A stretch of DNA of 64,000 nt. Origin: Acidimicrobiales bacterium (GTDB lineage Bacteria > Actinomycetota > Acidimicrobiia > Acidimicrobiales > GCA-2861595). Below the pieces are notes generated by a model. The model did no database searches. It was given only the letters and a program-made list of their open reading frames with translations, and was not told the origin of the DNA. Of this stretch, positions 4,544 to 44,316 are shown one piece after another (within the stretch, counting starts at the first letter, position 1; each line of letters begins with the position of its first letter). Location: NCBI GenBank assembly GCA_035540975.1, contig DATLFN010000136.1:856-64855 (forward strand), given 5' to 3'. The position numbers were made by a program, and so were the translations under genes.

Positions 4544-4564
4544 ACCCTCACCGCGCCACCGACG

Positions 4565-5092: not shown

Positions 5093-5111
5093 GCACGGCA
5101 CGCTACCGGCC

Positions 5112-5262: not shown

Positions 5263-5300
5263 CCGAGGGCACTCGGTCGACGCGAGGACGGACAGCCATC

Positions 5301-13400: not shown

Positions 13401-13924
13401 CGGTGAAGAACCAGGACAACCGTGAGCACGACATCTTCGACTCCGACGACTACCTCCAGGACCACGGCGGCATGGTGGCGACCATCCGCGCCCTCACCGG
13501 CGCCCAGCCCAAGGCGTGGTTCGGCGACTCGGCCGATCCCGCCCGGCCCCGTGTGCGCAGCCTGGCCGAGGAGGCGGCGCGGGTGGTGCGCACCCGGGTG
13601 CTCAACCCGAAGTGGATCGGCGCCATGCAGCGCCACGGGTACAAGGGGGCCTTCGAGCTGGCCGCCACCGTCGACTATTTGTTCGGCTACGACGCCACCG
13701 CCCAGGTGGTGGAGGACTGGATGTACGAGCGGGTGACGGCCGCCTACGTGGCCGATCCCGAGGTGCGCAAGTTCTTCGAGCTGTCGAACCCGTGGGCGCT
13801 GCGCTCGATCGCCGAGAAGCTCCTCGAAGCCGATGAGCGGGGCCTGTGGGACGCGTCGGCCGGGGCGCTGGCCACCCTGCGCGACGCCCTGCTGGAGGCC
13901 GAGGGATGGGAGGAGTCGCGATGA
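10469..13924 (+). CDS. cobN: cobaltochelatase large subunit CobN
   Basis: The last 1151 codons of ORF 9038..13924 begin at GTG 10469 (GTGA overlap with the cobQ stop): [17 protein letters not shown]...[11 protein letters not shown]...[14 protein letters not shown]...[11 protein letters not shown]...[19 protein letters not shown]. The first 477 codons of that ORF are an out-of-frame shadow of cobQ. Confidence 0.92.
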
Positions 13925-15756
13925 GCACGACCGACACGACCGGCGGGTGTGTGCGGTTCCCGTTCAGCGCCGTCGTCGGCCACGACGACGTCAAGCTGGC
14001 CCTGCTCCTCAACGCCATGGACCCCCGCATCGGCGGCGTGCTCCTGCGGGGGCAGAAGGGCAGCGCCAAGACCACGCTGGCCCGGGGCCTCGCCACCCTG
14101 CTGCCCGGCCGGGCCCCGTTCGTCGAGCTGCCCCTCGGGGCCACCGAGGACCGCCTCATCGGCAGCCTCGACGTGGCCGCCGCCCTCGGGGAGGGCCGCC
14201 GCCTCTTCCGGCCCGGACTGCTGGCCGACGTGGACGGCGGCGTGCTCTACGTCGACGAGGTCAACCTCCTGGCCGACCACCTGGTCGACGTGCTCCTCGA
14301 CGTCGCCGTCAGCGGCGTGAACGTGGTCGAGCGGGAGGGCCTGTCCGAGTCGCACCCGGCCCGGTTCGTGATGGCCGGGTCGATGAACCCCGAGGAGGGC
14401 GACCTGCGGCCCCAGCTGCTCGACCGCTTCGGCCTGGCCGTCGACGTGGCCACCAGCGCCGATCCAGACGAGCGGGCCGAGGCGGTGCGCCGGCGCCTCG
14501 CCTTCGACGCCGACCCGGCCGCCTTCGCCTCCGCCTGGGCCGGTGAGGAGGACCGCCTGCGGGCCCGCCTGGCCGCCCACCGTCCCGCCGACCTGGCCCC
14601 CGGCCTGCTCACCCGCATCTCGGCGCTGTGCGCGTCGGTGGGGGCCGAGGGCCTGCGGGCCGACCTGGTGATCTGCCGGGCAGCCACCGCCCTGGCCGGC
14701 TGGGACGGCGAGGCCACCGCCACCGAGGAGCACGTACGGCGAGTCGCCCCCCTGGCACTGGCCCACCGGCGCCGGCGCTCCCCCTTCGACCAGCCCGGCG
14801 TCGACCAGCAGGCGATCGACGACGCCCTCCACGACCCCCCGCCAGACCAGCGCGACCCGCGCGACCCGAGCAACGTCGAGAGCCGGGACGGTGGCGGTGA
14901 CGGCCGTCGCGGCCCGGACGGTGATGGCGCAGCCGGGAGGCGGGCCGAGGCGGACGCCCCGGGCCGGGTGGTCGCCGTGCGGGCGGCCCGGACACGGTCC
15001 GACCACGAGGCCGGCGGTCGCCGTTCCACCGTCGAGGGGCCCCGGGGCCGCCTCGTGGGCAGCCGCGTGCCCGGCGGCCCACCGACGTCGGTCGCCGTCG
15101 GGGCCACGCTGCGCGCCACCGCCGAACGAGTCGCCGTCGGCGGCGGCCCGGCCGCCACCGAGGCCGGCGACCTGCGCGAGGCGGTGCGCGAGCAGCGGGC
15201 CGGCAACCTGCTCGTGCTGACGGTCGACGCCTCCGGCTCGATGGGCGCGGCCCGGCGTATGGAGGCGGTCAAGGGCGCCGTGGTGTCCCTGTTGCTCGAC
15301 GCCTACCAGCGCCGCGACCGCGTGGCCCTCGTCGCCTTCGGTGGCGAGGGCGCCGAGGTGGTGCTCCGGCCGACCAGCAGCGTCGAGGTCGCCTCGGCGC
15401 GGCTGGCCGACGTGGTCACCGGGGGTCGCACCCCGCTGGCCGCCGGGCTCGAGGCCGCCCTCGGTGTGTGCACGGCGGCGGCCGGAGGGGCCCACCGGCC
15501 CCTGCTCGTGCTGGTCTCCGACGGCCGGGCCACAGCCGCACCGCCCGGCGCCGACGATCCGTTGGCCGCCGCCCACCGGGTGGCGGCATCCATCGCCTCG
15601 CGTGGCCTCGACGCCGTCGTCATCGACGCCGAGGACGGACGGACCCGCCTCGGCCTGGCGCGCGGCCTGGCCGAGGCCATGGGCGCCCGCTACCTCGCCC
15701 TGCCCGAGCTGACCACCGGCGCCCTGAGCGGCGCCCTCCAGGCGGTACTGCCATGA
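13921..15756 (+). CDS. ChlI/ChlD-type AAA+ / vWA chelatase subunit fusion (partner of CobN)
   Basis: Starting at ATG 13921 (ATGA overlap with the cobN stop): [45 protein letters not shown]...LYVDEVNLL...[18 protein letters not shown] (AAA+). An acidic/Arg-rich linker follows, then a vWA domain ([12 protein letters not shown]...VALVAFGG...[10 protein letters not shown]). Confidence 0.88.
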
Positions 15757-17267
15757 AGGCCCTGCTCGACGCCGTCGTGTTCGACATCGGCGGCACCCTC
15801 GTCACCGAGGCTGACCCCGGCACCCCCGTCGGTGACCTCGTGGTCGAGGTCCGCCGCGGGGCGGTCGACGACCTGAGCGCCCTGGCCGCCGCCGGCCTCG
15901 CCATCGGCGCCGCCACCAACACGGCGGTCATGCCCGAGGCCGAGGTCCGGGCCCTGCTCGTCCCGAGCGGGCTGGCCGATCTCCTGCCGGTCATCGCCAC
16001 GTCGTCCGACGCCGGCGCCGACAAGCCGGATCCGGCGGTGCTCCATCTCGCCCTCGAGCGCCTCGGCGTCGCCGACCCGGCTCGGGTGCTGTACGTCGGC
16101 GACCGCGACATCGACGTCACCGCCGCCGCAGCCGCCGGCATGCCCTTCGCCCCGATCGGCGACGGTCCGGTGATGGCTGCGGTCATGGCGTGGATCGACC
16201 GAGTGACCAGCGAGGTCATCGCCGACGCCGTGGTGGCCATCCGGCCGGTCGACGTCGAAGCGGAGCGGGCGGCCACCGAGCTGCAGGACCGGCTGACCAA
16301 GCCACGCGGCGCCCTCGGCCGGCTCGAATCCCTCGGCATCCGCCTGGCGGCGCTGGCCGGGGAGGTGCCTCCCCCCGTGCCCCATCCGGCGGCGGTGGCC
16401 GTGTTCGCCGGCGACCACGGGGTGCTCGCCCAGGGGGTGACCCAATGGCCCCAGGAGGTCACCGGCCAGATGGTCGCCAACTTCCTGGCCGGCGGCGCGG
16501 CAATAAACGTGCTGGCCGGCCAGGTGGGCGCCGAGGTGGTGGTCGTCGACATGGGCGTGGCCGGCATCCTCCCGGCTCACCCCGGGTTGCTCGACCGCAA
16601 GGTCCGGGCGGCCACCTGGGACCTGGCGGACGGGCCGGCCATGACGGTGGCCGAGGCCGGCCAGGCGGTGGCCGCCGGCATCGGCGTCGCCCGCCTTCTC
16701 GTCGAGCGGGGTGCCCGCTGCCTCGTCACCGGCGACATGGGCATCGGCAACACCACGCCTTCGGCCGCCCTGATCGCCGCCTTCACCGGTCGCCCGGCGG
16801 CCGAGGTGACCGGGAGGGGTACCGGAATCGACGACCCGACCCTGGCCCGCAAGGTGGCGGTGATCGAGCGGGCGCTGACCCGGGTGGGCCCCGGCGACGG
16901 GCCGCTCGCCGTGCTGGCCGAAGTGGGCGGCTTCGAGATCGCCGGGCTGGCGGGCTTCATCCTCGGTGGCGCGGCGGCCGGGGTGCCGATGGTCACCGAC
17001 GGCGTGATCGCCATGGCCGCGCTCCTCACCGCCTCCCGCATCGCCCCGACGGTGCTGCCCTGGTGCATCGCCGGGCACCGCTCCGTGGAGCCGGGTGCCA
17101 CCGTCGCCCTCGCCCACCTCGACCTCGAGCCCCTGCTCGACCTCGGCCTGCGGCTCGGCGAAGGCACCGGCGCCGTGCTGGCCCTGCCCATGGTGCAGGC
17201 GGCGGCCCGCATCCTGGGAGGGATGGCCACCTTCGACGCCGCCGGCGTGGTGGAGAAGGAGGGGTGA
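15753..17267 (+). CDS. cobT: HAD-superfamily hydrolase domain fused to nicotinate-nucleotide:dimethylbenzimidazole phosphoribosyltransferase (CobT)
   Basis: Starting at ATG 15753 (ATGA overlap with the chelatase stop). Residues 1-150 carry HAD motifs: [10 protein letters not shown] (DxGxT variant of motif I), [21 protein letters not shown]. The remainder is CobT: [12 protein letters not shown]...FAGDHGV...[15 protein letters not shown]...[11 protein letters not shown]. The protein is about 150 aa longer than a stand-alone CobT. Confidence 0.85.
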
Positions 17268-17336
17268 CCTGGCACCGCCCGGGAGGCTCGTCCCTGGGCA
17301 CGTTGCCGTGCGGGATCCCGCCGCGATGGTGCGCCC

Positions 17337-18209
17337 GTGATCCGCTGCGGTGAGGGGTGGGCGCCGGGGACCTGCGGAGAGCTGGTGCAGGGCGTCCTTG
17401 CCGACGGCACCGAGTTCCAGGTGTCACTGCCCATCGACCGGGGCGCCCGGGTGGTCGTGCACGTCGAGCCAGCCGACCGGTCGGAGGTGCGGGGCCTGCC
17501 GGCGTGGTGCACCAAGGCGACCCGCGCCGCCGAGGCTGCGCTGGACGTTCTCGACGTGGGACCGCACCTGGTGCGGGTGGAGCGGTCGAGCGACCTTCCC
17601 GTCGCCAAGGGCCTCGGCTCGTCCAGCGCCGACATCGTCGCCACGGCGCGGGCCGTGGCCGCCGCCTTCGGGCGCTCGTTCGCCGCCGACGAGCTCGCTG
17701 CACTGGCGGGAGCCATCGAGCCGAGCGACCCGGTGATGCACGAGGGCGTCGTCGCCTCCCGCCGTCGCGGCGGCATCCTCTGCCGCTGGGACTGGTCACC
17801 GACGTTCACGGTGGCCGTCCTCGTACCCGTCGCCTATGCGACCACCCCCGCCCGGGCCGCGTCACGTGACCGGCCGGTCGCCGACGACGACCTGCTCCAC
17901 CTCCTCGAGTCCGGGGTCAGGGACCGCGACCCGGCGCCCTTCGTGGCCGCGGCCCGAACCTCGGCGCGGCGCAGCTCCCGGGCGGCCGACCCGATCGTGG
18001 AGCGGACCGCGGCGCACGTCGGGAGGCTCGGCGCGCTGGGGTTGAACGTGGCCCATACGGGTACCGCCACCGGACTGCTGTTCCCGGACACCGGAGCCGG
18101 ACGGGCGGCGGCGGCGGCGGCCGTCGATGACGCCGTCCTCACCGCCGGCCTAGCGGCCGCCTTCGTGGCCGTCACGCCGGCCCGGTACGCCGTGAGTGGG
18201 CTCGCGTGA
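17337..18209 (+). CDS. pduX: GHMP-family L-threonine kinase (PduX-like)
   Basis: ORF 17337..18209 reads GEGWAPGTCGELVQGVL...DLPVAKGLGSSSADIVATARAV (GHMP motif II). Its position at the end of the cob cluster fits supply of threonine phosphate. Confidence 0.7.
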   Translation: MIRCGEGWAPGTCGELVQGVLADGTEFQVSLPIDRGARVVVHVEPADRSEVRGLPAWCTKATRAAEAALDVLDVGPHLVRVERSSDLPVAKGLGSSSADIVATARAVAAAFGRSFAADELAALAGAIEPSDPVMHEGVVASRRRGGILCRWDWSPTFTVAVLVPVAYATTPARAASRDRPVADDDLLHLLESGVRDRDPAPFVAAARTSARRSSRAADPIVERTAAHVGRLGALGLNVAHTGTATGLLFPDTGAGRAAAAAAVDDAVLTAGLAAAFVAVTPARYAVSGLA

Positions 18210-30648: not shown

Positions 30649-31131
30649 ATGAGCGCGCGGGCGGCCGAGCGGGACCTGGCCCGTCGTGAGGGACCTCTGG
30701 AGCCGTCGAGATCGGAGGCGACGAAGAGCCCGACGCGTTCGCACGGTCGTGACGACGGCCTGCCTCGCGGCTACCTGCGGGCCTGCCTGCTGCTGCTCGT
30801 GGCCGAAGCGCCGGTCCACGGCTACGAGCTCGTCGCCCAGCTCGGGGATCTGGGCGTGGGCAGGCCCGATGCCGCCACCGTCTATCGGACGCTGCGCGGT
30901 CTCGACGAGGAGGGGCTGGTCTCCTCGTGGTGGGCGTCCCCGGTGGCCGGCCCCGCTCGGCGGGTCTACCGGACGACGGTCGCCGGCAGGCACTGCCTCG
31001 TGCAGCTGGTCGGCGCGGTGGAGGACACCCACCTCCACCTGTCGGCCTTCCTGCACCGCCATCGTGCCCTGGGGCCCGCCGCGGGACGGACGGGCGACGC
31101 AACGTCTCCCTGTGGCGGCCGTCCCCGATGA
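30649..31131 (+). CDS. PadR-family transcriptional regulator
   Basis: ORF 30649..31131 reads YLRACLLLLVAEAPVHGYELVAQLGDLGVGRPDAATVYRTLRGLDEEGLVSSWW...RRVYRTT. There is no alternative in-frame start. Confidence 0.85.
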   Translation: MSARAAERDLARREGPLEPSRSEATKSPTRSHGRDDGLPRGYLRACLLLLVAEAPVHGYELVAQLGDLGVGRPDAATVYRTLRGLDEEGLVSSWWASPVAGPARRVYRTTVAGRHCLVQLVGAVEDTHLHLSAFLHRHRALGPAAGRTGDATSPCGGRPR

Positions 31132-31174: not shown

Positions 31175-32347
31175 GTGACCGCTGCCTCCCGTTCGCGGGC
31201 GGGATCTGCTCCGGGGCATCGTCGGGGATCAGCGCCTCCGAGTGGTCGCCGCGTCGGCGCTGTCGGTGTCGCACCACGCCGGCGAGGCGCTGGCCCGGCG
31301 CAGCTGGAGGCCGCCCCTCGACCTCGTCGTTCGCGGGGGCTCCTCTCCGGTGGCTGGGCCCGCGGCGGAGGGCTGTTCGCCGCCCTCGCCGTGCTGAGCG
31401 CCGTGGCGCTGGCGTCCATCGCCTACGGGTCCAGGCCCATGGCGCTCTCCACCGTGTGGGACGGCATGTGGGCCTACGACCCCACGGTGGGCGACCACCT
31501 GATCGTCCGCAGCCTGCGCATCCCCCGCACCGGGATGGGCCTGCTCGTCGGTGCCGCCCTCGGCCTCGCCGGCGCCGTGATGCAGGGGGTCACCCGCAAC
31601 CCGCTGGCCGACCCGGGCATCCTCGGGATCGAAGCCGGCGCGTCCCTCGCGGTCGTGACCGGCATCTACGCCCTCGGGATCGGCTCGTTCAGCGGGTACG
31701 TGTGGCTGGCGTTCGTCGGCGCCGCCGTCGCCAGCCTGGTGGTCTACTTCCTCGGCTCCCTCGGCCGCGGTGGCGCCACGCCGGTCAAGCTGGCGCTCGC
31801 CGGCGCCGCGCTCTCGGCGCTGCTCGGGTCCGTCACCACCTCGGTCCTGCTCCTCGACGTGGCCACGCTCGACCAGTTCCGCTTCTGGGTCGTCGGCTCG
31901 ATCGCCGGCCGCGACGCCGGGATCGTCGCCGACGTCGCCCCGTTCCTGGCCGTCGGCGCCGTCCTGGCGCTGCTGTCGGCACGGTCGCTCAACACCCTCG
32001 CCCTGGGCAACGACGTCGCCCGCTCCCTCGGCCAACGCGTCGGGCTCGCTCGCGCCATCTCCGCGCTGGCCGTGATCGTCCTCGCCGGCGGCGCCACCGC
32101 GGCGGCCGGCCCCATCGGGTTCCTCGGTCTCACCGTGCCCCATGTCGCCCGGGCGATCTGCGGGCCCGACTACCGGTGGATCGTCGCCTGGTCGGCGGTG
32201 CTGGCGCCCATCCTGTTGCTCGGAGCCGACGTCCTCGGCCGGCTCGTCGCCCGGCCCGGCGAGGTGCAGGTCGGCATCCTCACCGCCGTCATCGGCGCGC
32301 CGTTCTTCGTCGCCCTGGTGCGCCGCCGGAAGCTGGCCGAGCTCTGA
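31175..32347 (+). CDS. FecCD-family iron-siderophore ABC transporter permease
   Basis: The C-terminal part of ORF 30686..32347 reads [44 protein letters not shown]...[15 protein letters not shown]...[19 protein letters not shown] 31175 is the only in-frame start upstream of TM1. It overlaps (GTGA) the stop of a 16-codon ORF that in turn overlaps the padR stop. The N-terminal ~70 aa are Arg-rich. Confidence 0.75.
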
Positions 32348-33423
32348 TGACCGTGCCCGGTTCACTTCGGCGCGCCGGGCAGGGCGGTCTCCTCGTCATC
32401 CGCGTCCCCCCGCTCGGCTGGTCGACGAGGGCCCACGCACGGTCGTTCATCGTCACGCTGGCACTGACCGCCGCCGCCATCGCCATGTTCGCATGGTCAC
32501 TGGCCGTCGGCGACTTCCCGATCGCGATCAGCGACGTCCTCGCCACCCTCGCCGGTGGCGGCTCGGAGGACGGCGACTTCATCGTGCGGACCCTGCGGCT
32601 GCCGCGGGCGCTGGCCGCCGTTCTGGTGGGTGCCGGTTTCGGGCTGTCCGGCGCCATCTTCCAGCGGCTGGCACGCAACCCGCTGGCCAGCCCCGACATC
32701 ATCGGGGTCACCGCGGGCGCCGCCGCCTCGGCGGTGTTCATGATCGTGGTGGTCGGCGCGACCAGCATGCAGATCACCCTCGGCGCCCTGGCCGGGGCCA
32801 CCATCACCTCGCTCGGCATCTACCTCCTGGCCTACAAGCGGGGCGTCTCCGGCTACCGCCTCGTCCTCGTCGGCATCGGCATCACCGCCGTGCTCACCTC
32901 CGTCACCCAGTACCTGCTGACCAGGGCCGAGATCTTCGAGGCGCAACGCGCCGTCGTCTGGCTGACCGGGAGCCTCAACGGGCGCGGCTGGGAGCACGTA
33001 CGCCCGATGGCGCTGGCTCTGGTCGTGCTCGTCCCCGTCGCCCTGGGCCTGACCCGTCACCTGCGCGTGCTGGAGCTGGGCGACGAGACCGCCCGGGGGC
33101 TCGGCGCCCGCGTGGAAGGCATTCGAGCGGCGCTGTTGCTCACCGGCGTCGCCCTCGCCGCGGTCGGCACGGCGGCGGCCGGGCCCATCGGGTTCGTCGC
33201 CCTGGTCTCGCCGCAGATCGCCCGTCGCCTCGTGGGCGAGCGCTCCCTGGCACTGATGCCGGCCGCCGCCTGCGGCGCCGTGATCGTCGTCACCGCCGAT
33301 CTGGTCGCCCGCCGTCTGTTCGCGCCGACCGAGCTGCCGGTCGGGGTCATCACCGCCATCGTGGGGGCCCCGTACCTGCTGTACCTGCTCGCCCGCGCCA
33401 ACAAGATCGGAAGTGGCGGATGA
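32347..33423 (+). CDS. FecCD-family iron-siderophore ABC transporter permease
   Basis: ATG 32347 overlaps the upstream [46 protein letters not shown]...[17 protein letters not shown]...[16 protein letters not shown]. Confidence 0.9.
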
Positions 33424-34286
33424 CCCGGCACAGCCTGCGCGCCGAACACCTGTCGCTCGCCTACGACGACCGCCCGATCGTCGACGACCTCACGGTGACG
33501 ATCCCCGACGGGCGCATCACCGTGATCGTCGGCGCCAACGCCTGCGGCAAGTCGACGCTGCTGCGCGGCCTGGCCCGCCTCCTCAAGCCCCGCGCCGGCT
33601 GCGTGCTGCTCGACGGCGCCGACATCCGGCGCCGCCCGACCCGGGAGGTGGCCACCCGCCTCGGCATGCTGCCCCAGCAGCCGGTCGCCCCCGAGGGCAT
33701 CACCGTCGGCGACCTCGTCGCCCGCGGCCGCCACCCCCACCAGCGGTGGCTGCGGCAGTTCTCCGGCGACGACGAGGCCGCCGTCGGCGCCGCTCTGGCG
33801 GCGACGGGCACCACCGACCTGGCCCAGCGGAGCGTGGACGAGCTGTCGGGCGGGCAGCGCCAGCGGGTCTGGATCGCGCTCGCCCTGGCCCAGGGCACGC
33901 CCCTCATGCTGTTGGACGAGCCCACCACCTTCCTCGACCTCGCCCACCAGGTGGACGTGCTCGACCTGCTGGCCCGCCTCAACGAAACCGAGGGCCGCAC
34001 GATCGTCGCCGTCCTGCACGACCTCAACCTCGCCTGCCGCTACGCCCACCACCTCGTCGCCATGCGCGACGGAGGGATCGTGGCAGAAGGCGCACCGGGC
34101 GACGTCATCACGCCCGAGCTCGTACGCGCCGTGTTCGACCTCGACGCCCACGTCATCCCCGACCCGCTCACCGGGACGCCGCTGGTGCTGCCGGTGCCGG
34201 CCGCCGGCCGCCCGGCCGCCGCACCGCCGGTCGCCGTCGTGCACCTGGTCGCGAACAACGGCGACCGGGACGCCGTGGCGCCATGA
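33420..34286 (+). CDS. iron-siderophore ABC transporter ATP-binding protein (FepC/FecE type)
   Basis: ATG 33420 (ATGA overlap). Walker [13 protein letters not shown], signature LSGGQRQR, Walker [13 protein letters not shown], then VLHDLN. Confidence 0.9.
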
Positions 34287-35116
34287 CCGCGCCGTCCGGT
34301 CCTCTGGCCGAGACGCTCGAACGTCTCGCCGGCGTCGGCCCGTGGTTCGGCGGCCACCTCGGCGAGCCCGAGGGTGACGGCTGGCACCGCTTCAGCGACG
34401 TCTTCCACGACGACCGCCTCGCCGTCTGGGTGGACGACCTGGCCGCTCACCACGACGGTCGTCGCGACGTGGCCGGTTCGTACCTGGGCGGCTGGCTGGC
34501 CGGCGCCGCCACTGCCGTCCCCACCGCCGCCCTCGTGCTCGAACGCCGCCTTCCCGATCCGGCCGGAGAGCTGTGGTTCCACCGCCACGAGGAGGGCTGG
34601 TTCGACCGGGTCGCCTTCGAGGGAACCGGCGTCTTCGCCACATCGGCCGACCCCGCCGCCTCCCATCCCGACGTCGTCGTCGTGGCCACAGCCGACCTCC
34701 CCCGGGTGTTCGCCCGCGGGCTCGTGGACCGGCTCACCCCGGTCCTGGACGCGGTGCGGGGCGCGGCCCCGTTCGGTCGCAGCGGCCTGTGGGGCGGCGT
34801 GGCCGACGAGCTGGCCAGCGCCGCGCTGGGGGCGGCGCGGGCAGCGGGCACCGACACCGGCGACGCCTGGCGCCTCGCTGAGGCCGTCACCGACGCCATC
34901 GCGGAGGAGAGGCGGTGGCTGCGCGCCCGGCCGCGGCCGTTCGCAGTCACCACCGGCCGGGGCACCACCGCCTTCATCGTCAGGGGGACGTGCTGCCTCT
35001 ACTACAAGACGCAGCCGCAGCCGCCCGATGCCTCCGGCGACAGCCACTGCAACACCTGCCCCTTCCGTGACGACGACTCCCGTCACCGGCGCCTCGCCGC
35101 CGACGCCGAGGCTTGA
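34283..35116 (+). CDS. FhuF-like (2Fe-2S)-binding ferric-siderophore reductase family protein
   Basis: ATG 34283 (ATGA overlap). The C-terminal Cys cluster [25 protein letters not shown] (CC...CxxC) and the position after a siderophore importer fit the FhuF family. Confidence 0.7.
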
Positions 35117-35474
35117 GATCCGGCCACGGCGCCGGATGGTCCTCGGCGTGGCCGACCCGGTCGGCCGCCGTAGCCAAGCCAAGAGGCTGCTCGGCGACTT
35201 CGAGTCGAGTCGAAGCCGTCGCCGCCCTCCGCGCGGCAGGCGGCGGGCGGCGGGCCTGCCGCCCTCCGCGTCGCTCACGTCGGGTTCTACGAGACGGGCA
35301 GCCTCTCGTACCGCGGGTGACGCTCCGTTCCGGTACCGGTACCGCTCCCACCCCGCCACCCCGGTGCGGGCGACGAGCGGCTCACGAGGGCGCAAGCGGG
35401 CGTAGGCGTCGAAAGTCGCTCCGCGCTTAGTCGCGTCGGTGGATGAGTCGTACCCTTCACCCGGGAGGTGGGGC

Positions 35475-35945
35475 ATGCAGGGCAACGAACGGGTCCTCGA
35501 CCTGCTCAACGACGTGTTGACGGCCGAGCTGACGGCCGTCAACCAGTACTTCGTGGACGCCAAGATGTGCCAGAACTGGGGCTACGACCGGCTGGCGGCG
35601 AAGTTCCGGGAGGACTCCATCGACGAGATGAAGGACGCCGACTCGCTGATCGAGCGGATCCTCTACCTCGACGGCGTGCCCAACATGCAGCGGCTCGGTC
35701 CGGTGCGGGTGGGCGAGAGTGCCCCTGAGAAGCTGAAGCTCGCCCTCGACGTGGAGAGCGAGGCGATCGCCCGCCTCAACGCCGGGGTGGCGGTCTGCGT
35801 GGAGCTGGGCGACAACGGCAGCCGCGAGCTGCTCGAGCGCATCCTCGTGGGCGAGGAGGAGCACGCCGACTGGCTGGAGGCCCAGCTCGAGCTCGTCCGC
35901 CAGGTCGGTGAGGCCCACTATCTCGCCCAACAGATCCGCGACTGA
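35475..35945 (+). CDS. bfr: bacterioferritin
   Basis: ATG 35475 follows GGAGG. MQGNERVLDLLNDVLTAELTAVNQYFVDAKMCQNWGY...DSIDEMKDADSLIERILYLDG...EEEHADWLE. Met52, the heme ligand, is present. Position 54 is Asp rather than the usual His. Confidence 0.9.
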   Translation: MQGNERVLDLLNDVLTAELTAVNQYFVDAKMCQNWGYDRLAAKFREDSIDEMKDADSLIERILYLDGVPNMQRLGPVRVGESAPEKLKLALDVESEAIARLNAGVAVCVELGDNGSRELLERILVGEEEHADWLEAQLELVRQVGEAHYLAQQIRD

Positions 35946-36605: not shown

Positions 36606-37355
36606 ATGACCACTCCGCTGCACCTGAGCGCGGATCAGCGTCGCGAGCTCAGGCGTATCGCGGCGTCGTATTCGCAGCCCTACCGACGAGTGGTCATCGC
36701 GCGTGCACTGCTTCTCGTCGCGGACGGTGTTCCAACCGCTGACGTCGCCCAGCGCTGCGAGACGACGCCCACGACGGTTCGACGGTGGAGCTCACGTTTC
36801 GCAGCGGTCGGCATCGACGGGCTCGGCACAGTAGGACCCGGAAGAGGCCGCAAGCCGTCGCTCCGCCGGGCGGTGGCCGATGCGATAGCTCGGGACACCG
36901 AGCACACCGAGCCGCCCCCGGGGACGTCTCGCTGGACATTACGCACGATGGCGAGCCGGCACGGGGTGAGCAAGGACACGGTCGCCCGTGTGTGGCGCGA
37001 GCGCGGACTACGCCCGTGGGAGAAGCCGCCGAGACCGACCAAGGCGAGGCCGACCGAGCGTCGCCGCCGCCCGTCAGAGGCTCGCGAGAGCGAGGTCATC
37101 GAGGTCTTGTCCGCGCTCAACGAGGCGACCGGCCTGGCCCTGTCGCGGTGTCGACCCCGCGACGTGCACCGTGACTTCCTGTTCTTCGTGAAGCTCACCG
37201 AGGCGATCGAGCTGTGGGTCGAGCACTGGGACGATCCGAGCCGGCCGTTCCACTGGCAGAGCCGAGAGGAGGTCGTCAGCAGTACGAAGCGCGCCCGGGA
37301 GGCTTTGACGAACTACGCCAAATCGGCGCCAACTCGCAGCCACCAGGCCAGGTAG
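36606..37355 (+). mobile_element. IS630-family transposase remnant (HTH region plus C-terminal tail retained, DDE catalytic core deleted)
   Basis: ATG 36606 in ORF 36462..37355 gives LHLSADQRRELRRIAASYSQPYRRVVIARALLLVADGVPTADVAQRCETTPTTVRRWSSRFAAVGIDGL...GRGRKPS...SRWTLRTMASRHGVSKDTVARVWRERGLRPW. The sequence then jumps to LSALNEATGLALSRCRPRDVHRDFLFFVKL and on to AIELWVEHWDDPSRPFHWQS. At 249 aa it is about 100 aa short of an intact IS630 transposase, and I saw no DDE-type residues. I identified no terminal inverted repeats. Confidence 0.65.
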
Positions 37356-37449: not shown

Positions 37450-37944
37450 GTGGGCCTCCGTCGACGGTGCGTTCCGCTCCTGTACGCATCGATCGGCGCC
37501 ACGATGCTCCTGGGTTGCTCCAGCAACGACACCGACGAGCAGGGAGGCGGCGGTGAGCCTTCCGTGGTGGCCTTCTCGCCGCCGGCGGTGTCCGGCCCGT
37601 CGCCGCGCTTCGGGGTTCCGCTCCCGGAGGGCGCGGCGCTCGACCAGGGGGCGTCGAACGCCGAGGCCGAAGTGTTCACGGTCGCGTCGCCGACCACGTT
37701 CGGCGACGTCAACGCGTTCTACAAGCAGGAGATGGACGGAAAGCCGTTCCGCGACTTCGAGTGGTGTGGGCCCCGCGTGGATGCCGCCAGCGAGACATAC
37801 CTCCGGATCTGGCGCCGCCCGGGGACGTCCGACCTCATGGTCGTGGGCCTGACCTACAAGGCGCCGAGCGAGCCGACCACCATCAGCATCACGCAGGCGA
37901 GTGGCGTCATGGTCGACGCATGTCCACCAGCGGCATCGGGGTGA
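37450..37944 (+). CDS. lipoprotein of unknown function
   Basis: GTG 37450 in ORF 37372..37944. The signal peptide has a lipobox: VGLRRRCVPLLYASIGATMLLG-C-SSND. I recognised no motif in the mature part. Confidence 0.6.
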   Translation: MGLRRRCVPLLYASIGATMLLGCSSNDTDEQGGGGEPSVVAFSPPAVSGPSPRFGVPLPEGAALDQGASNAEAEVFTVASPTTFGDVNAFYKQEMDGKPFRDFEWCGPRVDAASETYLRIWRRPGTSDLMVVGLTYKAPSEPTTISITQASGVMVDACPPAASG

Positions 37945-37958: not shown

Positions 37959-39233
37959 ATGGGAAGGCACCGTCGGGCGCCGGGGGGCCGAGCCGGCGAG
38001 GGGGGCTTCACGCTCATCGAGCTGCTGGTCGTGGTCGTGATCCTCGGGGTCCTCGCCGGGGTCGTCGTGTTCTCCGTCAGCGGGATCAACGACAAGGGCG
38101 AGGAGTCGGCTTTGCGGACCGACGCCCGTACGCTCGTCAGCGCTCAGGAGGCCCACTGCGCGCAGAAGAGCGGCTACGCGTCGGAAAGCGGGCTCGTGAC
38201 CGCCGGCCTGCTGTCCAACGAGTCCGTGAACCACGACATCGTGTTGAACTCGGCCGGCCGGTGCGGCGAAGGGATGGGATCGGGCTTCGCCATCGAGTGC
38301 GTCGCCGACGCCCAGGTGTGCGCCGCCGAGGGCATAACGGTCGTGGACTCGGCCGGCGTGGCGGTAACCGTCCCGTCTCCTCCGCAAAGGGTCGTGTGTC
38401 TGGTGGGGGCCTGCGAGGATGTCCTCGCCGCCCTTGGCGCCACCGACCGGATGGTGATCCGATCGGTCGACTCCACCAACACGCCCGCCGCCATCGCGGC
38501 GTACGGAACGGCGGGCATCCCAACGATCAACAGCGCCGGGTTCGGCTTCCAGGACGAGGATCTGGAGCAGATCGCGGCGGCCGACCCCGACCTGGTGATC
38601 GGGCTCGGGCCGTTCCAGGGCTACCTGCGCCCTGCGCTGGAGCCGATCGCTCCGTTCTTCGACCTCGACATCGGCTCTTACCAGATGGCGATCACGAACC
38701 TCTACCGCGTCGGACAGCTCCTCGGGCTCAATGAAGCGGCCGAGGCTGGGGCGCAACTACTCCGCGACCAGATCGACGACTACGCCGATCTCTCCCCCCG
38801 CAACCGCACACCGATCGACGTCTACCCCTTCTTCTTCTTCGGCATCGAGATCCTGGCCGACAGCACCGAATCGCAGGGTGGTTCATTGTGGGCGACCCAG
38901 GGCCCCTATCCCTGGCCGGCGTACACGTCGAATTCCTCCTACCACTCCGGTGGGCAGATCACCTTCGACCTGGCGCGGGTGGCCGAGGTGGATCCTGACG
39001 CCATCTTCATCATCCGCTCCAACCGGTCGACGACCACGGCGAACGACGACTTCCGGCCCGCCAACCCGGCGGTGTGGGACAGCCTCGCGGCGGTCCGGAA
39101 CGGCCGCGTGTACGAGGGGCCCGACGTGAAGAGCTGGCCCTGGGCAACGGGCGGCACCATCTCGGCCAAGGAGACGCTCGATCGGGGAATGAAGCTGCTG
39201 TACCCCGAGGTCGGGGCCTTCCCTCTTCCCTAG
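37959..39233 (+). CDS. type IV prepilin-like N-terminal module fused to a cluster-A (FhuD/FepB/BtuF-like) ABC substrate-binding domain
   Basis: ATG 37959 follows AGGGGGG and lies 14 nt after the lipoprotein stop. The leader is MGRHRRAPGGRAGEGG, followed by FTLIELLVVVVILGVLAGVVVFSV (Gly at -1, Phe at +1, Glu at +5). A Cys-containing pilin-like head of about 90 aa follows (residues about 40-125). From residue about 126 (nt 38334) comes the binding domain: ITVVDSAGVAVTVPSPPQRVVCLVGACEDVLAALGATDRMV...ADPDLVIGL...VDPDAIFIIRS...WDSLAAVRNGRVYEG. An alternative ATG at 37920 would only lengthen the leader. Confidence 0.85.
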   Translation: MGRHRRAPGGRAGEGGFTLIELLVVVVILGVLAGVVVFSVSGINDKGEESALRTDARTLVSAQEAHCAQKSGYASESGLVTAGLLSNESVNHDIVLNSAGRCGEGMGSGFAIECVADAQVCAAEGITVVDSAGVAVTVPSPPQRVVCLVGACEDVLAALGATDRMVIRSVDSTNTPAAIAAYGTAGIPTINSAGFGFQDEDLEQIAAADPDLVIGLGPFQGYLRPALEPIAPFFDLDIGSYQMAITNLYRVGQLLGLNEAAEAGAQLLRDQIDDYADLSPRNRTPIDVYPFFFFGIEILADSTESQGGSLWATQGPYPWPAYTSNSSYHSGGQITFDLARVAEVDPDAIFIIRSNRSTTTANDDFRPANPAVWDSLAAVRNGRVYEGPDVKSWPWATGGTISAKETLDRGMKLLYPEVGAFPLP

Positions 39234-39442: not shown

Positions 39443-40423
39443 ATGATCGGGCTGATCGCCGCCCTGGCGACCGTGGCACTGGTCACGCTGCTTGCCGGGA
39501 TTCCCGCCCTGTCGCTGCCCGAGCTACGCGATGCGCTCGCCGGCACCGGGGACGAGCGGGCCGCGCTGGGAGTGCGTCACCTCCGCCTGCCCCGTCTCGT
39601 GCTGGCCGTCTGCGGAGGCGCAGGACTCGGGCTCGCGGGTGCGCTCGCCCAGGACAGCCTGCGCAATCCCCTGGCCGGCCCCGAACTGCTCGGCATCTCG
39701 TCCGGAGCGGCCACCGTGGCGGCGGCGGTCATCGTGTTCGAGATGCCCGTGCCCTTCACCGTCCTGCCCTTCCTGACGCTGGCGGGCGGGCTCCTCAGCG
39801 CCGGCGTGGTGCTCGCGGTGATGACCCGTCTGCGGTGCCCACCGAGCTCGCCCGTCCTGGTGCTCGCCGGCGCGGCCCTGTCGGCGGCCTTCGGTGCGGC
39901 GGTGACGATGATCGTCACCTTCGGGGAGCGGCAGGAGGTTGGTGCGGTACTGCGCTTCCTCACCGGGAGCCTGGCCGGCAGCGGGTGGCCCAGCGTTCGC
40001 GTGGCGCTGCCATGGCTCGCTGTCGGCATCCCGGCGGCGCTGATGCTGGCCCGACCGCTCAACCTGCTCCGCACCGGAGACGACCTGGCCGAGGGCGCCG
40101 GCCTCGCGGTGGTGCCGGCTCGTGCCGCGGCGCTGGGCCTCTGCGCCGTGCTGACGGCGGCGCTGGTCGCCGTCGCCGGTGCCATCGGGTTCGTCGCCCT
40201 GTCGGCGCCTCACATCGCCCGGCGCCTCCTCGGGACCACCGATGCCCGCCGGGTGCTGCCGATGGCCGCCGTCGTGGGCGCGTTGCTCCTCGCGGGCGCC
40301 GACCTCGCCGCCCGTCTTGCCTTCTCGCCCGTCGAGGTTTCGGTCGGGCTGTGGACGGGCATCGTGGGTGGTCCCGTCCTGCTGGCCGTGCTGAGGGCTC
40401 AGCTCCGGGGTTCCGGGGAATGA
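39443..40423 (+). CDS. FecCD-family ABC transporter permease
   Basis: ORF 39443..40423 reads RLPRLVLAVCGGAGLGLAGALAQDSLRNPLAGPELLGISSGAA...GAIGFVALSAPHIARRL...GLWTGIVGGPVLLAVL. Confidence 0.9.
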   Translation: MIGLIAALATVALVTLLAGIPALSLPELRDALAGTGDERAALGVRHLRLPRLVLAVCGGAGLGLAGALAQDSLRNPLAGPELLGISSGAATVAAAVIVFEMPVPFTVLPFLTLAGGLLSAGVVLAVMTRLRCPPSSPVLVLAGAALSAAFGAAVTMIVTFGERQEVGAVLRFLTGSLAGSGWPSVRVALPWLAVGIPAALMLARPLNLLRTGDDLAEGAGLAVVPARAAALGLCAVLTAALVAVAGAIGFVALSAPHIARRLLGTTDARRVLPMAAVVGALLLAGADLAARLAFSPVEVSVGLWTGIVGGPVLLAVLRAQLRGSGE

Positions 40424-41538
40424 CCGGCGGTCCGGACCTCACGTCTGGAGGGCCTCGTTCCTCCGTGCCTTCACCTGGCGAAGCCGGCGGATCGGCCGGG
40501 GAGCGGCCTCCGGCGTTGGTCCGGCACTTCGGCCTGGTGATGGCCGGCGGCATCGCGGTGACCGGCGTGCTGGTGATGCTCTCGGCCGCTGTCGGGACGA
40601 CGCGGGTGAGCCCCGCCGACGTCGTCGCAGCGCTCGTCGGGCACCCGGTGTCGGAGCTCCACCGCCAGGTGGTCCTCGAGCTGCGCCTGCCCCGGGCCCT
40701 GGTCGCCGTCGTCGCAGGCGGCTGCCTGGGGTTGGCCGGCGCACTCTCGCAGGCCGTCACGCGCAACCCATTGGCGTCGCCCGATCTCACCGGCGTCGCT
40801 GCCGGTGTCGTGTTCTGCACCGTCTCGTGGATCGCGAGCGGCCCGACCCTCGGCGCCACCCCCGATCAGCTGCTCCTCCAACCCACGGTCGTGATCGTCG
40901 GTGGCGTGGGTGGGGCGGGAACCGGTTGGGTCGTCTACGCGTTGTCGGCTCGGCGGCGTGGTGACCCCGTCGCCCTGGTGTTGACCGGCGTCGTCGTCGC
41001 CCTGTTGCTCGGGACCGCCACCGCCTTCGTGTTGATGCTGTCGCCGACCAGCGCCACCCTGAGCGCCTATTACTGGTTCGTCGGCTCCCTCAACGCCCGG
41101 GCATGGGCCCACTGGGCGGTTCTGTGGCCCTGGGCGGCGATCACGGTCTGCGCCGCCCTCGTCGGCTCCAGCCGAGCGAACGTGTTGCAGCTGGGCGACG
41201 ACGTGGCCACCGGTCTCGGTGTCGACCCCGAGCGGACCCGCCTCGGGCTCTTCCTGATCTCAGCCGTCATGACCGCCGGCGCCCTCGTCGTCGTCGGCGC
41301 CATCGCCTTCGTCGGCCTCATCGCTCCCCATGTGGCCCGTGGCCTCGTCGGCCACGACCTACGCCGCGTCCAACCACTCAGCTTCGTGATCGGCGCGGCA
41401 TTGCTGTGCGGCGGAGACTTGGCGGCGCGGTCAGTGGCTCAGCGACCGCTCCCGACCGGGGTCGTCACGGCGGTCCTCGGCGCCGGCTTCTTCATGTTCC
41501 TGCTGTTGCGCCGCCCGGTTCCGGGACCGTCGGCATGA
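40420..41538 (+). CDS. FecCD-family ABC transporter permease
   Basis: ATG 40420 (ATGA overlap). [41 protein letters not shown]...GAIAFVGLIAPHVARGL...GVVTAVLGAGFFMFLL. Confidence 0.9.
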   Translation: MTGGPDLTSGGPRSSVPSPGEAGGSAGERPPALVRHFGLVMAGGIAVTGVLVMLSAAVGTTRVSPADVVAALVGHPVSELHRQVVLELRLPRALVAVVAGGCLGLAGALSQAVTRNPLASPDLTGVAAGVVFCTVSWIASGPTLGATPDQLLLQPTVVIVGGVGGAGTGWVVYALSARRRGDPVALVLTGVVVALLLGTATAFVLMLSPTSATLSAYYWFVGSLNARAWAHWAVLWPWAAITVCAALVGSSRANVLQLGDDVATGLGVDPERTRLGLFLISAVMTAGALVVVGAIAFVGLIAPHVARGLVGHDLRRVQPLSFVIGAALLCGGDLAARSVAQRPLPTGVVTAVLGAGFFMFLLLRRPVPGPSA

Positions 41539-42383
41539 CCGAGAAGCCGACCGGCGGGCCCAGCCTCGCCGCCGAGGACGTCGTCGTCCGCTACGGGCCG
41601 AGAACGGCCCTCGGTCCCGTCGCGCTGGAGTTCGAGCCGTCGACCACCACCGCCGTCGTGGGGCCGAACGGTTGCGGCAAGTCGACCCTGCTCCGATCGC
41701 TGGCTCGCCTCGTGACCCCTTCGGTCGGGACCGTCTACCTCGACGGTGCCGCCATCACCAACCTCCCGACCCGGGCCGTCGCCCGCAGCCTCGCCGTGCT
41801 TCCGCAGGCTCCTTCGACCCCCGACGGGGTCACGGTCGCCGAGCTGGTCGAACAGGGCCGGTACGCCCACGTCGGGCCGCTGCGGATGCTGCGGCGCCGC
41901 GACTACGACGCCGTCGAGCGGGCCCTCGAGGTCACCGGGGTGGCGAGGTTCCGGCACCGCACCATGGACCGGCTCTCCGGTGGCGAGCGCCAGCGGGCCT
42001 GGATCGCGGTGACGCTCGCCCAGGAGCCCCAGATCATGCTCCTCGACGAGCCGACCACCTTCCTCGACATCCGCCACCAGCTCGAGATCCTCGAGCTGAT
42101 CAGGAGGCTGAACCATGAGCGGGGGATCACCATCGTGGTCGCCCTCCACGACGTCAACCACGCCGCTCGGTACGCCGACCGCCTGGTCGCCCTCAAGGGC
42201 GGCGCCGTCGTCGCTGATGGACCGCCCGCGGCGCTCCTCACACCCCAGCTCATCGAGGCCGTCTTCGACGTCTCCGCCACGGTTTTGCGCGATCCCCGTA
42301 CCGGTGTTCCGGTGTGCATCCCGTACCTGCCTGCCGGCCGAGCGACCTCCATGCCGGACGACCGCCCCGGAGCCATGGCGTGA
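41535..42383 (+). CDS. ABC transporter ATP-binding protein (FepC/BtuD type)
   Basis: ATG 41535 (ATGA overlap). Walker [13 protein letters not shown], signature LSGGERQR, Walker [13 protein letters not shown], then ALHDVN. Confidence 0.9.
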   Translation: MTEKPTGGPSLAAEDVVVRYGPRTALGPVALEFEPSTTTAVVGPNGCGKSTLLRSLARLVTPSVGTVYLDGAAITNLPTRAVARSLAVLPQAPSTPDGVTVAELVEQGRYAHVGPLRMLRRRDYDAVERALEVTGVARFRHRTMDRLSGGERQRAWIAVTLAQEPQIMLLDEPTTFLDIRHQLEILELIRRLNHERGITIVVALHDVNHAARYADRLVALKGGAVVADGPPAALLTPQLIEAVFDVSATVLRDPRTGVPVCIPYLPAGRATSMPDDRPGAMA

Positions 42384-43183
42384 TCCGAGAGACCACCCTG
42401 AGGGTCGTGACGTGGAACGTCTGGCTGCGCTTCGGGCCCTGGCGGCGTCGCCAGACGGCGATCGAGAGCACACTCGCCGGGCTCGCACCCGACATCGTGG
42501 CGCTCCAGGAGGTCTGGCGGGAGCCGGGTGGGACCGATCAGGCACGGCTGCTCGGTGAGGCGCTGGAGATGTACCACCACTACAGCCACTGCTCCACGCT
42601 CGACGGGCTGGAGATCGGGAACGCGGTTCTCTCGCGCTGGCCGATTACCTGCGTCGAAGAGTTGGTGCTGCCCGGGCCCCGGGACAGCGGTGAGCGGCGC
42701 CGTTGCGTCACCCTCGCCAGGATCAGCGGGCCAAGGGGTGACGTCCCCTTTTGCACCACCCACCTCGCCCACGACTACGCGGACAGCGGCCTGCGCCAGC
42801 AGCAGGCGCGCGCCGTCGCCCGGTTCGTGGCGTGCCATGCCAACGGCGGCTTCCCGTCGGTCCTTGCCGGCGACCTCAATGCCGACCCCACGTGCGACGA
42901 GGTCCGGATGCTCACGGGCCGCTGCGCGGTGCCCGTCCCGGGGCTCGTCTTCCACGACGCCTGGGACATCGCGGGGTCCGGTGACGGGCACACCTGGTCG
43001 AATGACAATCCGCATGCACGGTCGAGCCTGGCCCCGTCACGTCGGATCGACTACGTACTCGTCGGGCTCACCGGCCCCCATGGAGTCGGCCACGTCGTCA
43101 GCGCCACTCTTGCGGGCGTGAGCCCGGTCGACGGCATGGTCGCCTCCGACCACTACGCCGTCGTCGCCGATCTCCGGTACTGA
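42380..43183 (+). CDS. endonuclease/exonuclease/phosphatase (EEP) family protein
   Basis: GTG 42380 (GTGA overlap with the ATPase stop). LRVVTWNVW...DIVALQEVW...LAGDLNADP...RIDYVL...SDHYAVVADL. Confidence 0.8.
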   Translation: MIRETTLRVVTWNVWLRFGPWRRRQTAIESTLAGLAPDIVALQEVWREPGGTDQARLLGEALEMYHHYSHCSTLDGLEIGNAVLSRWPITCVEELVLPGPRDSGERRRCVTLARISGPRGDVPFCTTHLAHDYADSGLRQQQARAVARFVACHANGGFPSVLAGDLNADPTCDEVRMLTGRCAVPVPGLVFHDAWDIAGSGDGHTWSNDNPHARSSLAPSRRIDYVLVGLTGPHGVGHVVSATLAGVSPVDGMVASDHYAVVADLRY

Positions 43184-43695: not shown

Positions 43696-44316
43696 TCAAA
43701 CTCCGGTAGCGGCGCCAGCTGGTTCAGCGCCAGGAGAGGGCGGCCTCTCGGTGTAGTTGTCGCCGAGGGGAGCGCAGCCGGGGACATTCACGACCGGGAG
43801 CCCGGCGGCGGAGCGGTACTCGTCTCCGAGAAAGGCTCCCACGCCCATCGCTCCCGTCGGGTTTCCCTTCCCGGAGGGGACTCCACCCCACGCCCCGCAC
43901 GTGCCGACAGCGACGAGAGCGGCCGCTCGAGGGGCGAGCCGGCGCAGCCAGTCGTTGCTCGTGCCCTGGCCGCCATCGCCGGAAGTGCCCAGGCCCGACC
44001 AGAACCCGTCGCCGACGGTGCGCTCGTCGCACACCGAGCCCTCCCAGGTGATGACGTAGGGGGCGTCGAGCTCGCCCCGCTCGGTCAGCTCGAGGTGCAC
44101 CAAGGCGGCGAACGGGCGCCCGAGGAGGCCCTGCGGCCACCGGCCGAGCATGGTTTCCAGGGCATGGCTGCCGTACTCGACCGTGCCGTCGTCAGCGAGC
44201 AGGGCGGTGATATCGGGCGAACGCTCGACCACGGCGACCAGTGCCGCGTGCGCGCGCCGCCAGGACTCTGCGGTGTCGGTCACGGCCGGACAGCGACGGC
44301 TCGGGTCTGGTGGCAC
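43696..44316 (-). pseudogene. chimeric ORF: PAS-like fragment joined to an internal fragment of a [NiFe]-hydrogenase small subunit
   Basis: ORF 43696..44316. The C-terminal half, APYVITWEGSVC...WLRRLAPRAAALVAVGTCGAWGGVPSGKGNPTGAMGVGAFLGDEYRSAAGLPVVNVPGCAPLGDNYTE, matches the flavodoxin-like portion of the hydrogenase small subunit. The N-terminal CxxC region and the whole distal Fe-S domain are missing. The N-terminal half (VERSPDITALLADDGTVEYGSHALETMLG) is PAS-like. Confidence 0.45.

Follow-up and report, generated by a model that had tools for sequence, protein, structure and literature searches.

In standard accounts, the binding proteins that serve importers in monoderm bacteria are lipoproteins or permease fusions. 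A gene from an Acidimicrobiales bacterium raises the question of whether such a protein can instead be held at the membrane by a pilin. The gene lies at positions 37959 to 39233 of a 64,000-nucleotide (nt) stretch of contig DATLFN010000136.1 (assembly GCA_035540975.1), which we refer to as the window. A first-pass annotation, made from the sequence alone, read its product as a type IV prepilin N-terminus and pilin-like head continued by the substrate-binding protein of an ATP-binding cassette (ABC) importer. We examined whether the joined gene is authentic, what its N-terminal part is, and what that part might do for the importer. We consider it probable that the fused protein is a modular type IV pilin that carries the binding protein of the adjacent importer as its cargo, and that it is processed by a prepilin peptidase, anchored by its alpha1N helix, able to dock on the permease, and probably also a substrate of filament machinery.

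One reading frame for a prepilin and a binding protein

The gene and the parts of its product are as follows.

37959..39233, + strand: pilin-fused substrate-binding protein gene, 424 amino acids (open reading frame with PF07963, PF01497, and TIGR02532 matches)
37959..38006, + strand: class III leader peptide, 16 amino acids, basic, ending in Gly-1 (read directly from the sequence)
38007..38321, + strand: mature pilin module, residues 17 to 121, comprising the alpha1 helix (Phe+1, Glu+5) and a small four-Cys head (AlphaFold2 model, profile matches)
38322..39230, + strand: Peripla_BP_2 domain (FhuD/HtsA/FecB-like, cluster A), residues 122 to 424 (Pfam and PDB sequence matches)

The ATG at 37959 is preceded by a G-rich stretch, the TAG stop codon occupies 39231 to 39233, and the frame is open throughout. 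The N-terminus reads MGRHRRAPGGRAGEGG up to the cleavage site and FTLIELLVVVVILGVLAGVVVFSV after it, placing Gly at -1, Phe at +1, and Glu at +5, followed by a hydrophobic stretch of about 20 residues. The prepilin signal proposed in the first-pass annotation can therefore be read directly, and both profiles for it score above their curated cutoffs: PF07963 (N_methyl) at 29.1 bits versus 21.2 over residues 14 to 36, and TIGR02532 at 26.6 bits versus 16.3 over residues 16 to 36. The GspG model (a partial match, residues 16 to 75) and the Myxococcus PilA model also align, together spanning residues 15 to 75. The head contains the four cysteines reported earlier, at positions 67, 102, 114, and 121 of the fused protein. 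The proposed binding domain is equally clear, with PF01497 (Peripla_BP_2) scoring 52.1 bits against a curated cutoff of 27.5 (E = 7.7e-14) across residues 145 to 389, which correspond to positions 1 to 233 of the 235 in the profile.

Some gene callers choose an alternative upstream ATG at 37920, which adds 13 residues and gives a product of 437 amino acids (P0001). Translation likely starts at 37959, because leaders are 16 to 20 amino acids long in all orthologues and the orthologue in locus L014 was called at the ATG equivalent to 37959. Both candidate starts lie upstream of the hydrophobic helix.

The single frame might be an artefact, produced by misassembly or a frameshift that joined a pilin gene to a binding-protein gene, or by a translation start that actually lies downstream of the helix. 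The choice between the two upstream ATGs is the sole uncertainty that could be cited in its favor, and we found no other support for it. Against it, the identical protein occurs in the same context on 23 contigs that were read, from several JGI and ENA samples and from several assemblers. At 90% identity the family forms seven clusters, consisting of the window's P0001 and six orthologue clusters at 60 to 82% identity, drawn from farmland soil (L014), a Logan run (L015), one NCBI Acidimicrobiales metagenome-assembled genome (MAG), and other metagenome assemblies. All six keep one continuous frame, the four head cysteines, and the junction C-x-x-EGIT-x-x-D, which answers an earlier concern about a chimeric assembly. 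In addition, the binding domain lacks a signal peptide or lipobox of its own, and the ratio of nonsynonymous to synonymous substitution rates (dN/dS) is <1 across the N-terminal module. We regard an artefact as so improbable that it can be set aside.

The N-terminal module is a complete small pilin

We modeled the pilin module with AlphaFold2 using a 61-sequence alignment of the module. The model, with a mean predicted local distance difference test score (pLDDT) of 87.5, has a 52-residue helix (residues 19 to 70), a short helix (residues 76 to 81), a beta-hairpin (strands 92 to 97 and 109 to 114), and a short C-terminal helix. This predicted fold is that of a pilin, in which an alpha1 helix of about 50 residues packs on a beta-sheet head, so the first-pass expectation of a pilin helix and head is borne out for this part of the protein. 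Sequence profiles match the module to solved pilins, including Geobacter PilA (4.8e-15), GspG (1.1e-10), and Streptococcus sanguinis PilE1 (6e-10), as well as Myxococcus PilA and Thermus PilA4 and PilA5. A profile search of 5.8 billion proteins recovered >4200 relatives at E ≤ 1e-10; the best 120 are all stand-alone pilins of 104 to 212 amino acids from Streptomyces, Kitasatospora, and Acidimicrobiia, annotated as type IV pilin, GspG, or PilA. The stand-alone pilin of locus L009 is 55% identical to the window module. Given the profile relatives, the solved-pilin matches, and the model, residues 1 to 121 form a complete small pilin that belongs to the actinobacterial major-pilin family.

The processing signals of the module are conserved. 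All 150 module relatives have Gly-1 and Glu+5, Phe+1 is at least 90% conserved among them, and the GFTLIE signal is invariant in the seven aligned sequences formed by the window protein and six orthologues. We estimated dN/dS by the Nei-Gojobori method between the window gene and three orthologues. Values were 0.15 to 0.17 for alpha1N, 0.27 to 0.44 for alpha1C plus the head, and 0.11 to 0.25 for the binding domain. Purifying selection acts on the mature N-terminal module throughout. For the leader, dN/dS was 0.5 to 1.6, which indicates that only its length and charge are retained.

These data bear on the possibility that the class III signal and pilin module are an anchor only, that is, a peptidase-processed tether or stalk that never enters a filament. 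Against the closer orthologues, constraint on the head is looser than on the cargo (dN/dS 0.40 to 0.44 versus 0.11), a point in favor of such a role. However, the protein keeps the full head, the conserved cysteine pairs, Glu+5, and Phe+1, none of which a tether would need. The invariant Gly-1 and Glu+5, together with the retained full head, argue for a role of recognition by pilus machinery in addition to anchoring.

The pilin module stands where a lipid anchor would be

The closest PDB sequence matches of the binding domain are siderophore binders: 5dh0 (1.6e-7), HtsA, mycobacterial FecB, and CeuE. Its nearest non-pilin relatives, P0185 to P0191, are 26 to 36% identical end to end, and the subfamily is divergent in that no non-pilin relative exceeds 36% identity. 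All seven of these relatives carry a lipoprotein signal (LGAC, LAGC, ASGC, LAAC, LAAC, LSAC, and VAAC) followed by a low-complexity linker, and their mature domain begins ('LTFTDATHTTVTLPRPPSRIACLVGICEDVL') exactly at the point where the pilin module ends in the window protein ('ITVVDSAGVAVTVPSPPQRVVCLVGACEDVL'). Because these two boundaries coincide, the pilin stands in the place of the lipobox and linker and has replaced the lipid anchor of the binding protein.

Within the binding domain, Asp337, an acidic residue at the C-lobe position that in BtuF is a permease-docking site, is invariant in the orthologues. A C-L-x-G-x-C motif at 38397 to 38414 (residues 147 to 152), in the first strand-helix of the domain, is invariant among the pilin-fused orthologues. 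The lipoprotein relatives P0185 to P0189 have a corresponding CxxxxC pair (ACLVGIC, ACLTEIC, and ACLTMIC), and most Peripla_BP_2 proteins have S-L-S-P-S at this position. The cysteine pair could be a disulfide or a metal site.

The fused protein belongs to an importer operon

Four genes follow the fused gene on the same strand.

39443..40423, + strand: FecCD permease 1 (PF01032, 244 bits), conserved downstream of orthologues
40420..41538, + strand: FecCD permease 2 (PF01032, 265 bits), starting at ATG 40420 (ATGA overlap, 40420 to 40423) or at 40516, depending on the gene caller
41535..42383, + strand: ABC ATPase (PF00005, 104.7 bits), 4-nt overlap with permease 2
42380..43183, + strand: endonuclease/exonuclease/phosphatase-family (EEP) gene (PF03372, 82.8 bits), 4-nt overlap with the ATPase gene

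The binding-protein and permease 1 genes are 209 nt apart. The first-pass annotation linked the four downstream genes to one another by 4-nt overlaps; those at 41535 and 42380 are present, and the one between the two permease genes exists only if ATG 40420 is used. The binding protein is thus encoded with FecCD permeases and an ABC ATPase, as is typical of cluster A substrate-binding proteins. The same is true in L005, which carries a 61% identical orthologue, and in L015, and the order binding protein-permease-permease-ATPase is conserved in these orthologue loci. The EEP gene is coupled in translation to the ATPase gene and has the same position in L005 (14349 to 15185); a gene of this family is not a usual companion of an iron-chelate importer.

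The conserved operon is difficult to reconcile with a further possibility, that the binding domain is the recognition tip of a pilus-borne receptor or adhesin, used for sensing, adhesion, or chelate piracy with no delivery to the importer. The modular pilins described to date are adhesins (PMC8179133), and the module also bears non-transport cargo in other proteins. However, the operon encodes no second binding protein, and the pilin-fused gene is the sole Peripla_BP_2 homologue in the 64-kb window. The other pilin-fused binding proteins that were checked are each accompanied by the matching permease class, and the putative docking residue Asp337 is invariant. A role confined to reception or adhesion is therefore improbable, and we continue with the reading in which the cargo serves the importer.

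The ligand of this importer is most likely a ferric siderophore or similar metal chelate, judging from the solved relatives of the binding domain. The setting favors an iron-chelate ligand in that a bacterioferritin gene (35439 to 35945) and a second FecCD importer lie nearby. Cobalamin was considered as a candidate since the window also contains a cobalamin biosynthesis-like gene run, and it was rejected because there is no cobalamin riboswitch near the operon and the nearest solved relatives are siderophore binders. The run in question (2345 to 18209), read from open reading frame translations only, includes precorrin methyltransferase-, cobyrinic acid a,c-diamide synthase-, cobyric acid synthase-, and chelatase-like genes; it lies about 20 kb from the importer and has no evident link to it.

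Pilin-fused binding proteins in other loci

We used residues 1 to 121 in a HMMER scan of 1.84 billion cluster representatives to survey what the pilin module is fused to. At E ≤ 1e-10, 892 representatives matched the module, and we examined the best 150 (50%-identity clusters), of which 83 are at least 300 amino acids long. Their cargo included the following.

SBP_bac_5: 27 of the best 150 cluster representatives
SBP_bac_11: 3 of the best 150
SBP_bac_6 / SBP_bac_1: 1 of the best 150
Peripla_BP_2 (the window family): 1 of the best 150
Kelch-like: about 24 of the best 150
Other beta-propellers: 8 of the best 150

In total, solute-binding cargo is present in 32 of these 150 module relatives, and lectin-like cargo was also found. 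Named members come from Acidimicrobiales or Actinomycetota MAGs, where they are annotated 'prepilin-type ... domain-containing protein' or 'ABC transporter substrate-binding protein'. Every fused binding protein that we checked adjoins the matching permease class. In L006, a pilin-SBP_bac_6 gene is beside BPD_transp_1; L008 has two pilin-SBP_bac_5 fusions, each with two BPD_transp_1 genes and oligo_HPY ATPases; and L012 has two further pilin-SBP_bac_5 fusions with a stand-alone pilin gene between them.

The architecture was regarded as unusual at first pass, and this holds for one part of the family only. The combination of pilin and Peripla_BP_2 is rare, being confined to seven 90% clusters (one 50% cluster), and a scan of 185,579 species-representative genomes found a single carrier, the Acidimicrobiales MAG already among the orthologues, and no cultured host. 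By contrast, uncultured Acidimicrobiales commonly encode pilins joined to solute-binding proteins of one family or another, which have machine annotations and are undescribed.

Several of these sister proteins are encoded together with pilus genes. Locus L009 (9454 to 20270) is a co-directional run of a pilin gene (137 amino acids), a pilin-SBP_bac_11 gene, and permease, ATPase, and permease genes, continued by genes for PilB (MshEN-T2SSE), PilC (T2SSF), three pilin-like proteins, and a PilT-like ATPase. Gaps are no more than about 20 nt from the fused gene onward, with about 130 nt between the pilin and fused genes, and a Peptidase_A24 protein is encoded divergently upstream. Locus L016 (9155 to 18856) repeats this arrangement, including the divergent Peptidase_A24 gene, although the binding domains of the two loci share only 45% identity; gene calling gave no MshEN-type PilB in L016, and the sole T2SSE gene is at the end of the run. 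In L017 (7581 to 11464), PilB and PilC genes adjoin a pilin gene and a pilin-SBP_bac_11 gene, and the locus ends at a contig edge. The importer permease and ATPase genes therefore lie inside the pilus gene run in L009 and L016. The SBP_bac_11 cargo of all three loci is of the molybdate/sulfate type, and ModE-like MerR-TOBE regulators are encoded nearby in L009 and L016. Peptidase_A24 genes are found beside related fused proteins in L009, L010, L016, and L017 (a fragment in L017). In L010 (Streptomyces sp., GCA_026343295.1; 10001 to 11584), the same module is fused to a beta-propeller-like domain of about 400 amino acids in a PilB/PilC/pilin/PilD cluster. Local stand-alone pilins are 51 to 64% identical to the module of the neighboring fused protein in the same locus. 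The module-propeller fusion occurs in many Streptomyces genomes, and Kelch-repeat cargo is common on the module in metagenomes.

The linkage to pilus genes is a genomic association in sister families and is not evidence for the window protein itself. It nevertheless counts against an anchor-only role of the module, since sister binding proteins lie in or beside pilus gene clusters at three loci and the same module bears cargo (Kelch, propeller, and lectin-like) of the kinds that modular pilins typically display on filaments.

Comparison with known systems

The archaeal bindosome, named in the first-pass annotation as the nearest parallel, is indeed the closest described analogue. The Saccharolobus solfataricus proteins GlcS, AraS, and TreS are binding proteins with class III signals that form a bindosome with the Bas system (PMC3047682), and a 2026 preprint extended such proteins across archaea and proposed their display on filaments (bioRxiv 10.64898/2026.04.22.720090). 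As in those systems, the binding protein of an importer has a prepilin-type signal in place of a lipid anchor or classical signal, its gene is in the transporter locus while filament machinery may be encoded elsewhere, and the hypothesis is one of type IV filament machinery functionalized for substrate capture. Unlike them, the window protein is bacterial (Actinomycetota, Acidimicrobiales), has a GspG/PilA-like signal cut between G and FTLIE, contains a whole folded head rather than just a signal and helix, lacks homology to Bas proteins, and carries an iron-chelate-type binder rather than a sugar binder. Its sister-locus importers are, moreover, embedded in PilB(MshEN)/PilC/PilT-type clusters with Peptidase_A24. 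Bindosome proteins have a PibD-processed archaeal signal and depend on BasEF and BasABC, whereas here we find a bacterial pilin N-terminus and, in sister loci, Pil-type machinery. The window protein is a bindosome analogue, not a member. Class-III-signal binding proteins are so far known from archaea only, and full-text literature searches found no account of bacterial pilin-fused binding proteins.

Among bacterial proteins, the best comparison is with the modular pilins of S. sanguinis, PilB with a vWA module and PilC with a lectin module (PMC8179133). Modular pilins in the sense of Raynaud et al. (2021) are defined by an N-terminal pilin, a C-terminal non-pilus domain, and a short linker between them, which is the arrangement of the window protein (pilin at residues 17 to 121, binding domain from residue 122 onward). 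Both come from monoderm hosts and join a small pilin through a very short linker to a large independent domain; the cargo in the window protein is a transporter component, not an adhesin. A 2021 InterPro survey of 264 architectures has no entry in which a pilin precedes a solute-binding domain, and a single entry in the reversed order, IPR002491-IPR012902 (PMC8179133).

Each half of the protein also has conventional counterparts. Monoderm siderophore-binding proteins (FhuD, HtsA, CeuE, FecB, and 5dh0) share PF01497 and the operon logic of two FecCD permeases plus an ATPase, but in the window protein a pilin of about 105 residues replaces the lipobox and flexible linker, and CLxGxC takes the place of S-L-S-P-S. 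Actinobacterial stand-alone pilins are 45 to 64% identical over the N-terminal 100 to 120 residues and share the leader, alpha1, and alpha-beta loop pattern. They end after the head, at 104 to 160 amino acids, whereas the fused forms continue into cargo. Their cysteine pair consists of one residue in alpha1 (the 'SAC' motif) and one at the C-terminus, whereas the fused forms have cysteines 67 and 102 and often 114 and 121.

Anchor, stalk, or filament subunit

Under the favored reading, the precursor would be inserted into the membrane through its class III signal, and a prepilin peptidase encoded elsewhere in the genome would cut after Gly16. The alpha1N helix would then hold the mature protein on the outward-facing side of the membrane, with the pilin head as a stalk replacing the lipid anchor and flexible linker, and the membrane-embedded protein, drawn from the membrane pool of pilins, would dock on the permease like other binding proteins. 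Because the module reproduces the major pilin of the lineage in full and is conserved, the protein is probably also a substrate of type IV filament machinery, in which case it could be incorporated into a pilus or short pseudopilus that takes the binding domain into or through the wall. We infer cleavage, methylation, ligand, docking, and filament incorporation of the fused protein, and consider the last of these plausible.

Several observations weigh against this reading. A Foldseek comparison of the pilin-module model with the PDB gave no significant match, the top one being Thermus PilA5 at E = 3.4; Foldseek scoring is poor for long-helix folds, and the best match is nonetheless a pilin. 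The full-length AlphaFold2 model, based on a 7-sequence alignment, was too low in confidence to confirm the bilobed binding protein anticipated after the pilin in the first-pass annotation; its pLDDT is 49, with residues 275 to 424 at <50 and the C-lobe at <40. Two deeper full-length alignments, which combined lipoprotein relatives and pilin modules, were dropped because MAFFT placed binding-protein sequences onto the pilin region. The linker between the pilin head and the binding domain is only about 4 residues, which makes docking on the permease from a rigid stalk a geometric question. The ligand assignment comes from weak similarity (20 to 34 bits) and gene context. As reported at first pass, both ZnuA copies in the window have lipoboxes (LVGC and AAGC), as does the gene immediately upstream of the fused gene; the pilin anchor is thus selective within the organism and not its general solution. 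Finally, the reported absence of pilus machinery from the window stands: tblastn with the PilB, PilC, PilD, PilT, and minor pilins of L009 found no PilB, PilC, PilD, or PilT homologue in the 64 kb and matched only the pilin module itself, and a second GFTLIE motif was not found there. Within 10 kb of each orthologue in the pilin-Peripla_BP_2 family, genes for a prepilin peptidase, an assembly ATPase, or a platform protein are likewise absent.

The lack of nearby pilus genes at the orthologue loci is also a point in favor of the module as an anchor only. So is the need for the binding protein to reach a permease in the membrane, and no filament has yet been demonstrated for the archaeal bindosome either (bioRxiv 10.64898/2026.04.22.720090). 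Set against the retained head and the sister loci described above, an anchor-only role is quite possible, though we do not favor it, and it overlaps with the core of the modular-pilin reading, in which the module is in any case a processed anchor and stalk.

At the other extreme, Acidimicrobiales might possess a bacterial 'bindosome' in which pili or pseudopili are loaded with the substrate-binding proteins of several importers (peptide/nickel, molybdate-type, and iron-chelate) and a cycle of extension and retraction ferries ligand. PilB-driven extension would push the binding domains out across the thick wall so that they capture ligands in short supply, and PilT-driven retraction would return loaded subunits to the membrane pool for docking on the permeases. 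We put this forward tentatively and find it rather doubtful. If true, it would amount to ATP-driven nutrient 'fishing' that couples two machines not known to have been linked in bacteria.

Surroundings and inheritance of the locus

Two further genes precede the fused gene and complete the block.

36606..37355, + strand: IS630-like helix-turn-helix (HTH) protein without a DDE domain (HTH_23/28/29/32), at the head of the block
37504..37944, + strand: small lipoprotein, 146 amino acids, with an LLGC lipobox and a conserved Cys near the C-terminus, without a Pfam family

The first-pass annotation took an IS630 remnant on one side and gene debris on the other as signs of horizontal acquisition. Conserved synteny and normal base composition do not support this, and we reject it. 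The IS630-like protein is 47% identical over 238 amino acids to the product of the gene at the corresponding position in L005 (8578 to 9330) and has an equivalent in L015 (535 to 1227). The small lipoprotein is 33% identical to the product of the same-position gene in L005 (9441 to 9932); homology at this position is shown in L005 only, with L014 and L015 having merely a small gene there. The G+C content of the locus is 0.70 to 0.73, and that of the window ranges from 0.70 to 0.78. The locus is an old, vertically kept block.

The IS630-like protein keeps its N-terminal HTH domains and C-terminal tail without the DDE catalytic core. Rather than debris, it looks like part of a transposase that has been domesticated, possibly as a regulator. 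On the other side, the open reading frame at 43696 to 44316 (- strand) joins a PAS-like stretch at its N-terminus to a piece that matches Oxidored_q6 (NiFe-hydrogenase/NuoB small subunit). This 'debris' on the flank of the locus is probably a pseudogene or part of a gene. The downstream neighbors of the block differ in L005. Rfam identified no riboswitch around the operon, and we found no IdeR/DtxR box, no sigma-70 promoter, and no convincing terminator in the 209-nt gap.

The second importer, FecCD-FecCD-ATPase at 31391 to 34286 (+ strand), lies 3 to 6.5 kb upstream, ahead of the bacterioferritin gene, and its proteins are 35 to 49% identical to those of the downstream set. It has no binding-protein gene of its own in the window. 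Its binding protein might come from a gene elsewhere, or both importers might share the pilin-fused protein. A PadR gene (30649 to 31131) precedes it, and a gene for a 277-amino-acid protein follows it (the set spans 31391 to 35116, + strand). This protein has a C-terminal CC...CxxC motif and no Pfam match, and the motif resembles that of FhuF-type siderophore reductases.

Implications

A third, pilin-based mode of anchoring binding proteins in bacteria would alter the prediction of exported proteins. Lipobox and Sec/Tat predictors miss pilin-fused substrate-binding proteins, and annotation pipelines label them either 'pilin' or 'ABC substrate-binding protein'. The fused proteins would provide a bacterial counterpart to the poorly understood bindosome, with a complete pilin head and, in sister loci, an importer within the pilus gene cluster, which makes filament display directly testable. 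They would also widen the repertoire of modular pilins from adhesion to nutrient uptake. For the organisms themselves, the finding suggests how the abundant uncultured Acidimicrobiales of soil and aquatic habitats may scavenge iron, peptides, and oxyanions.

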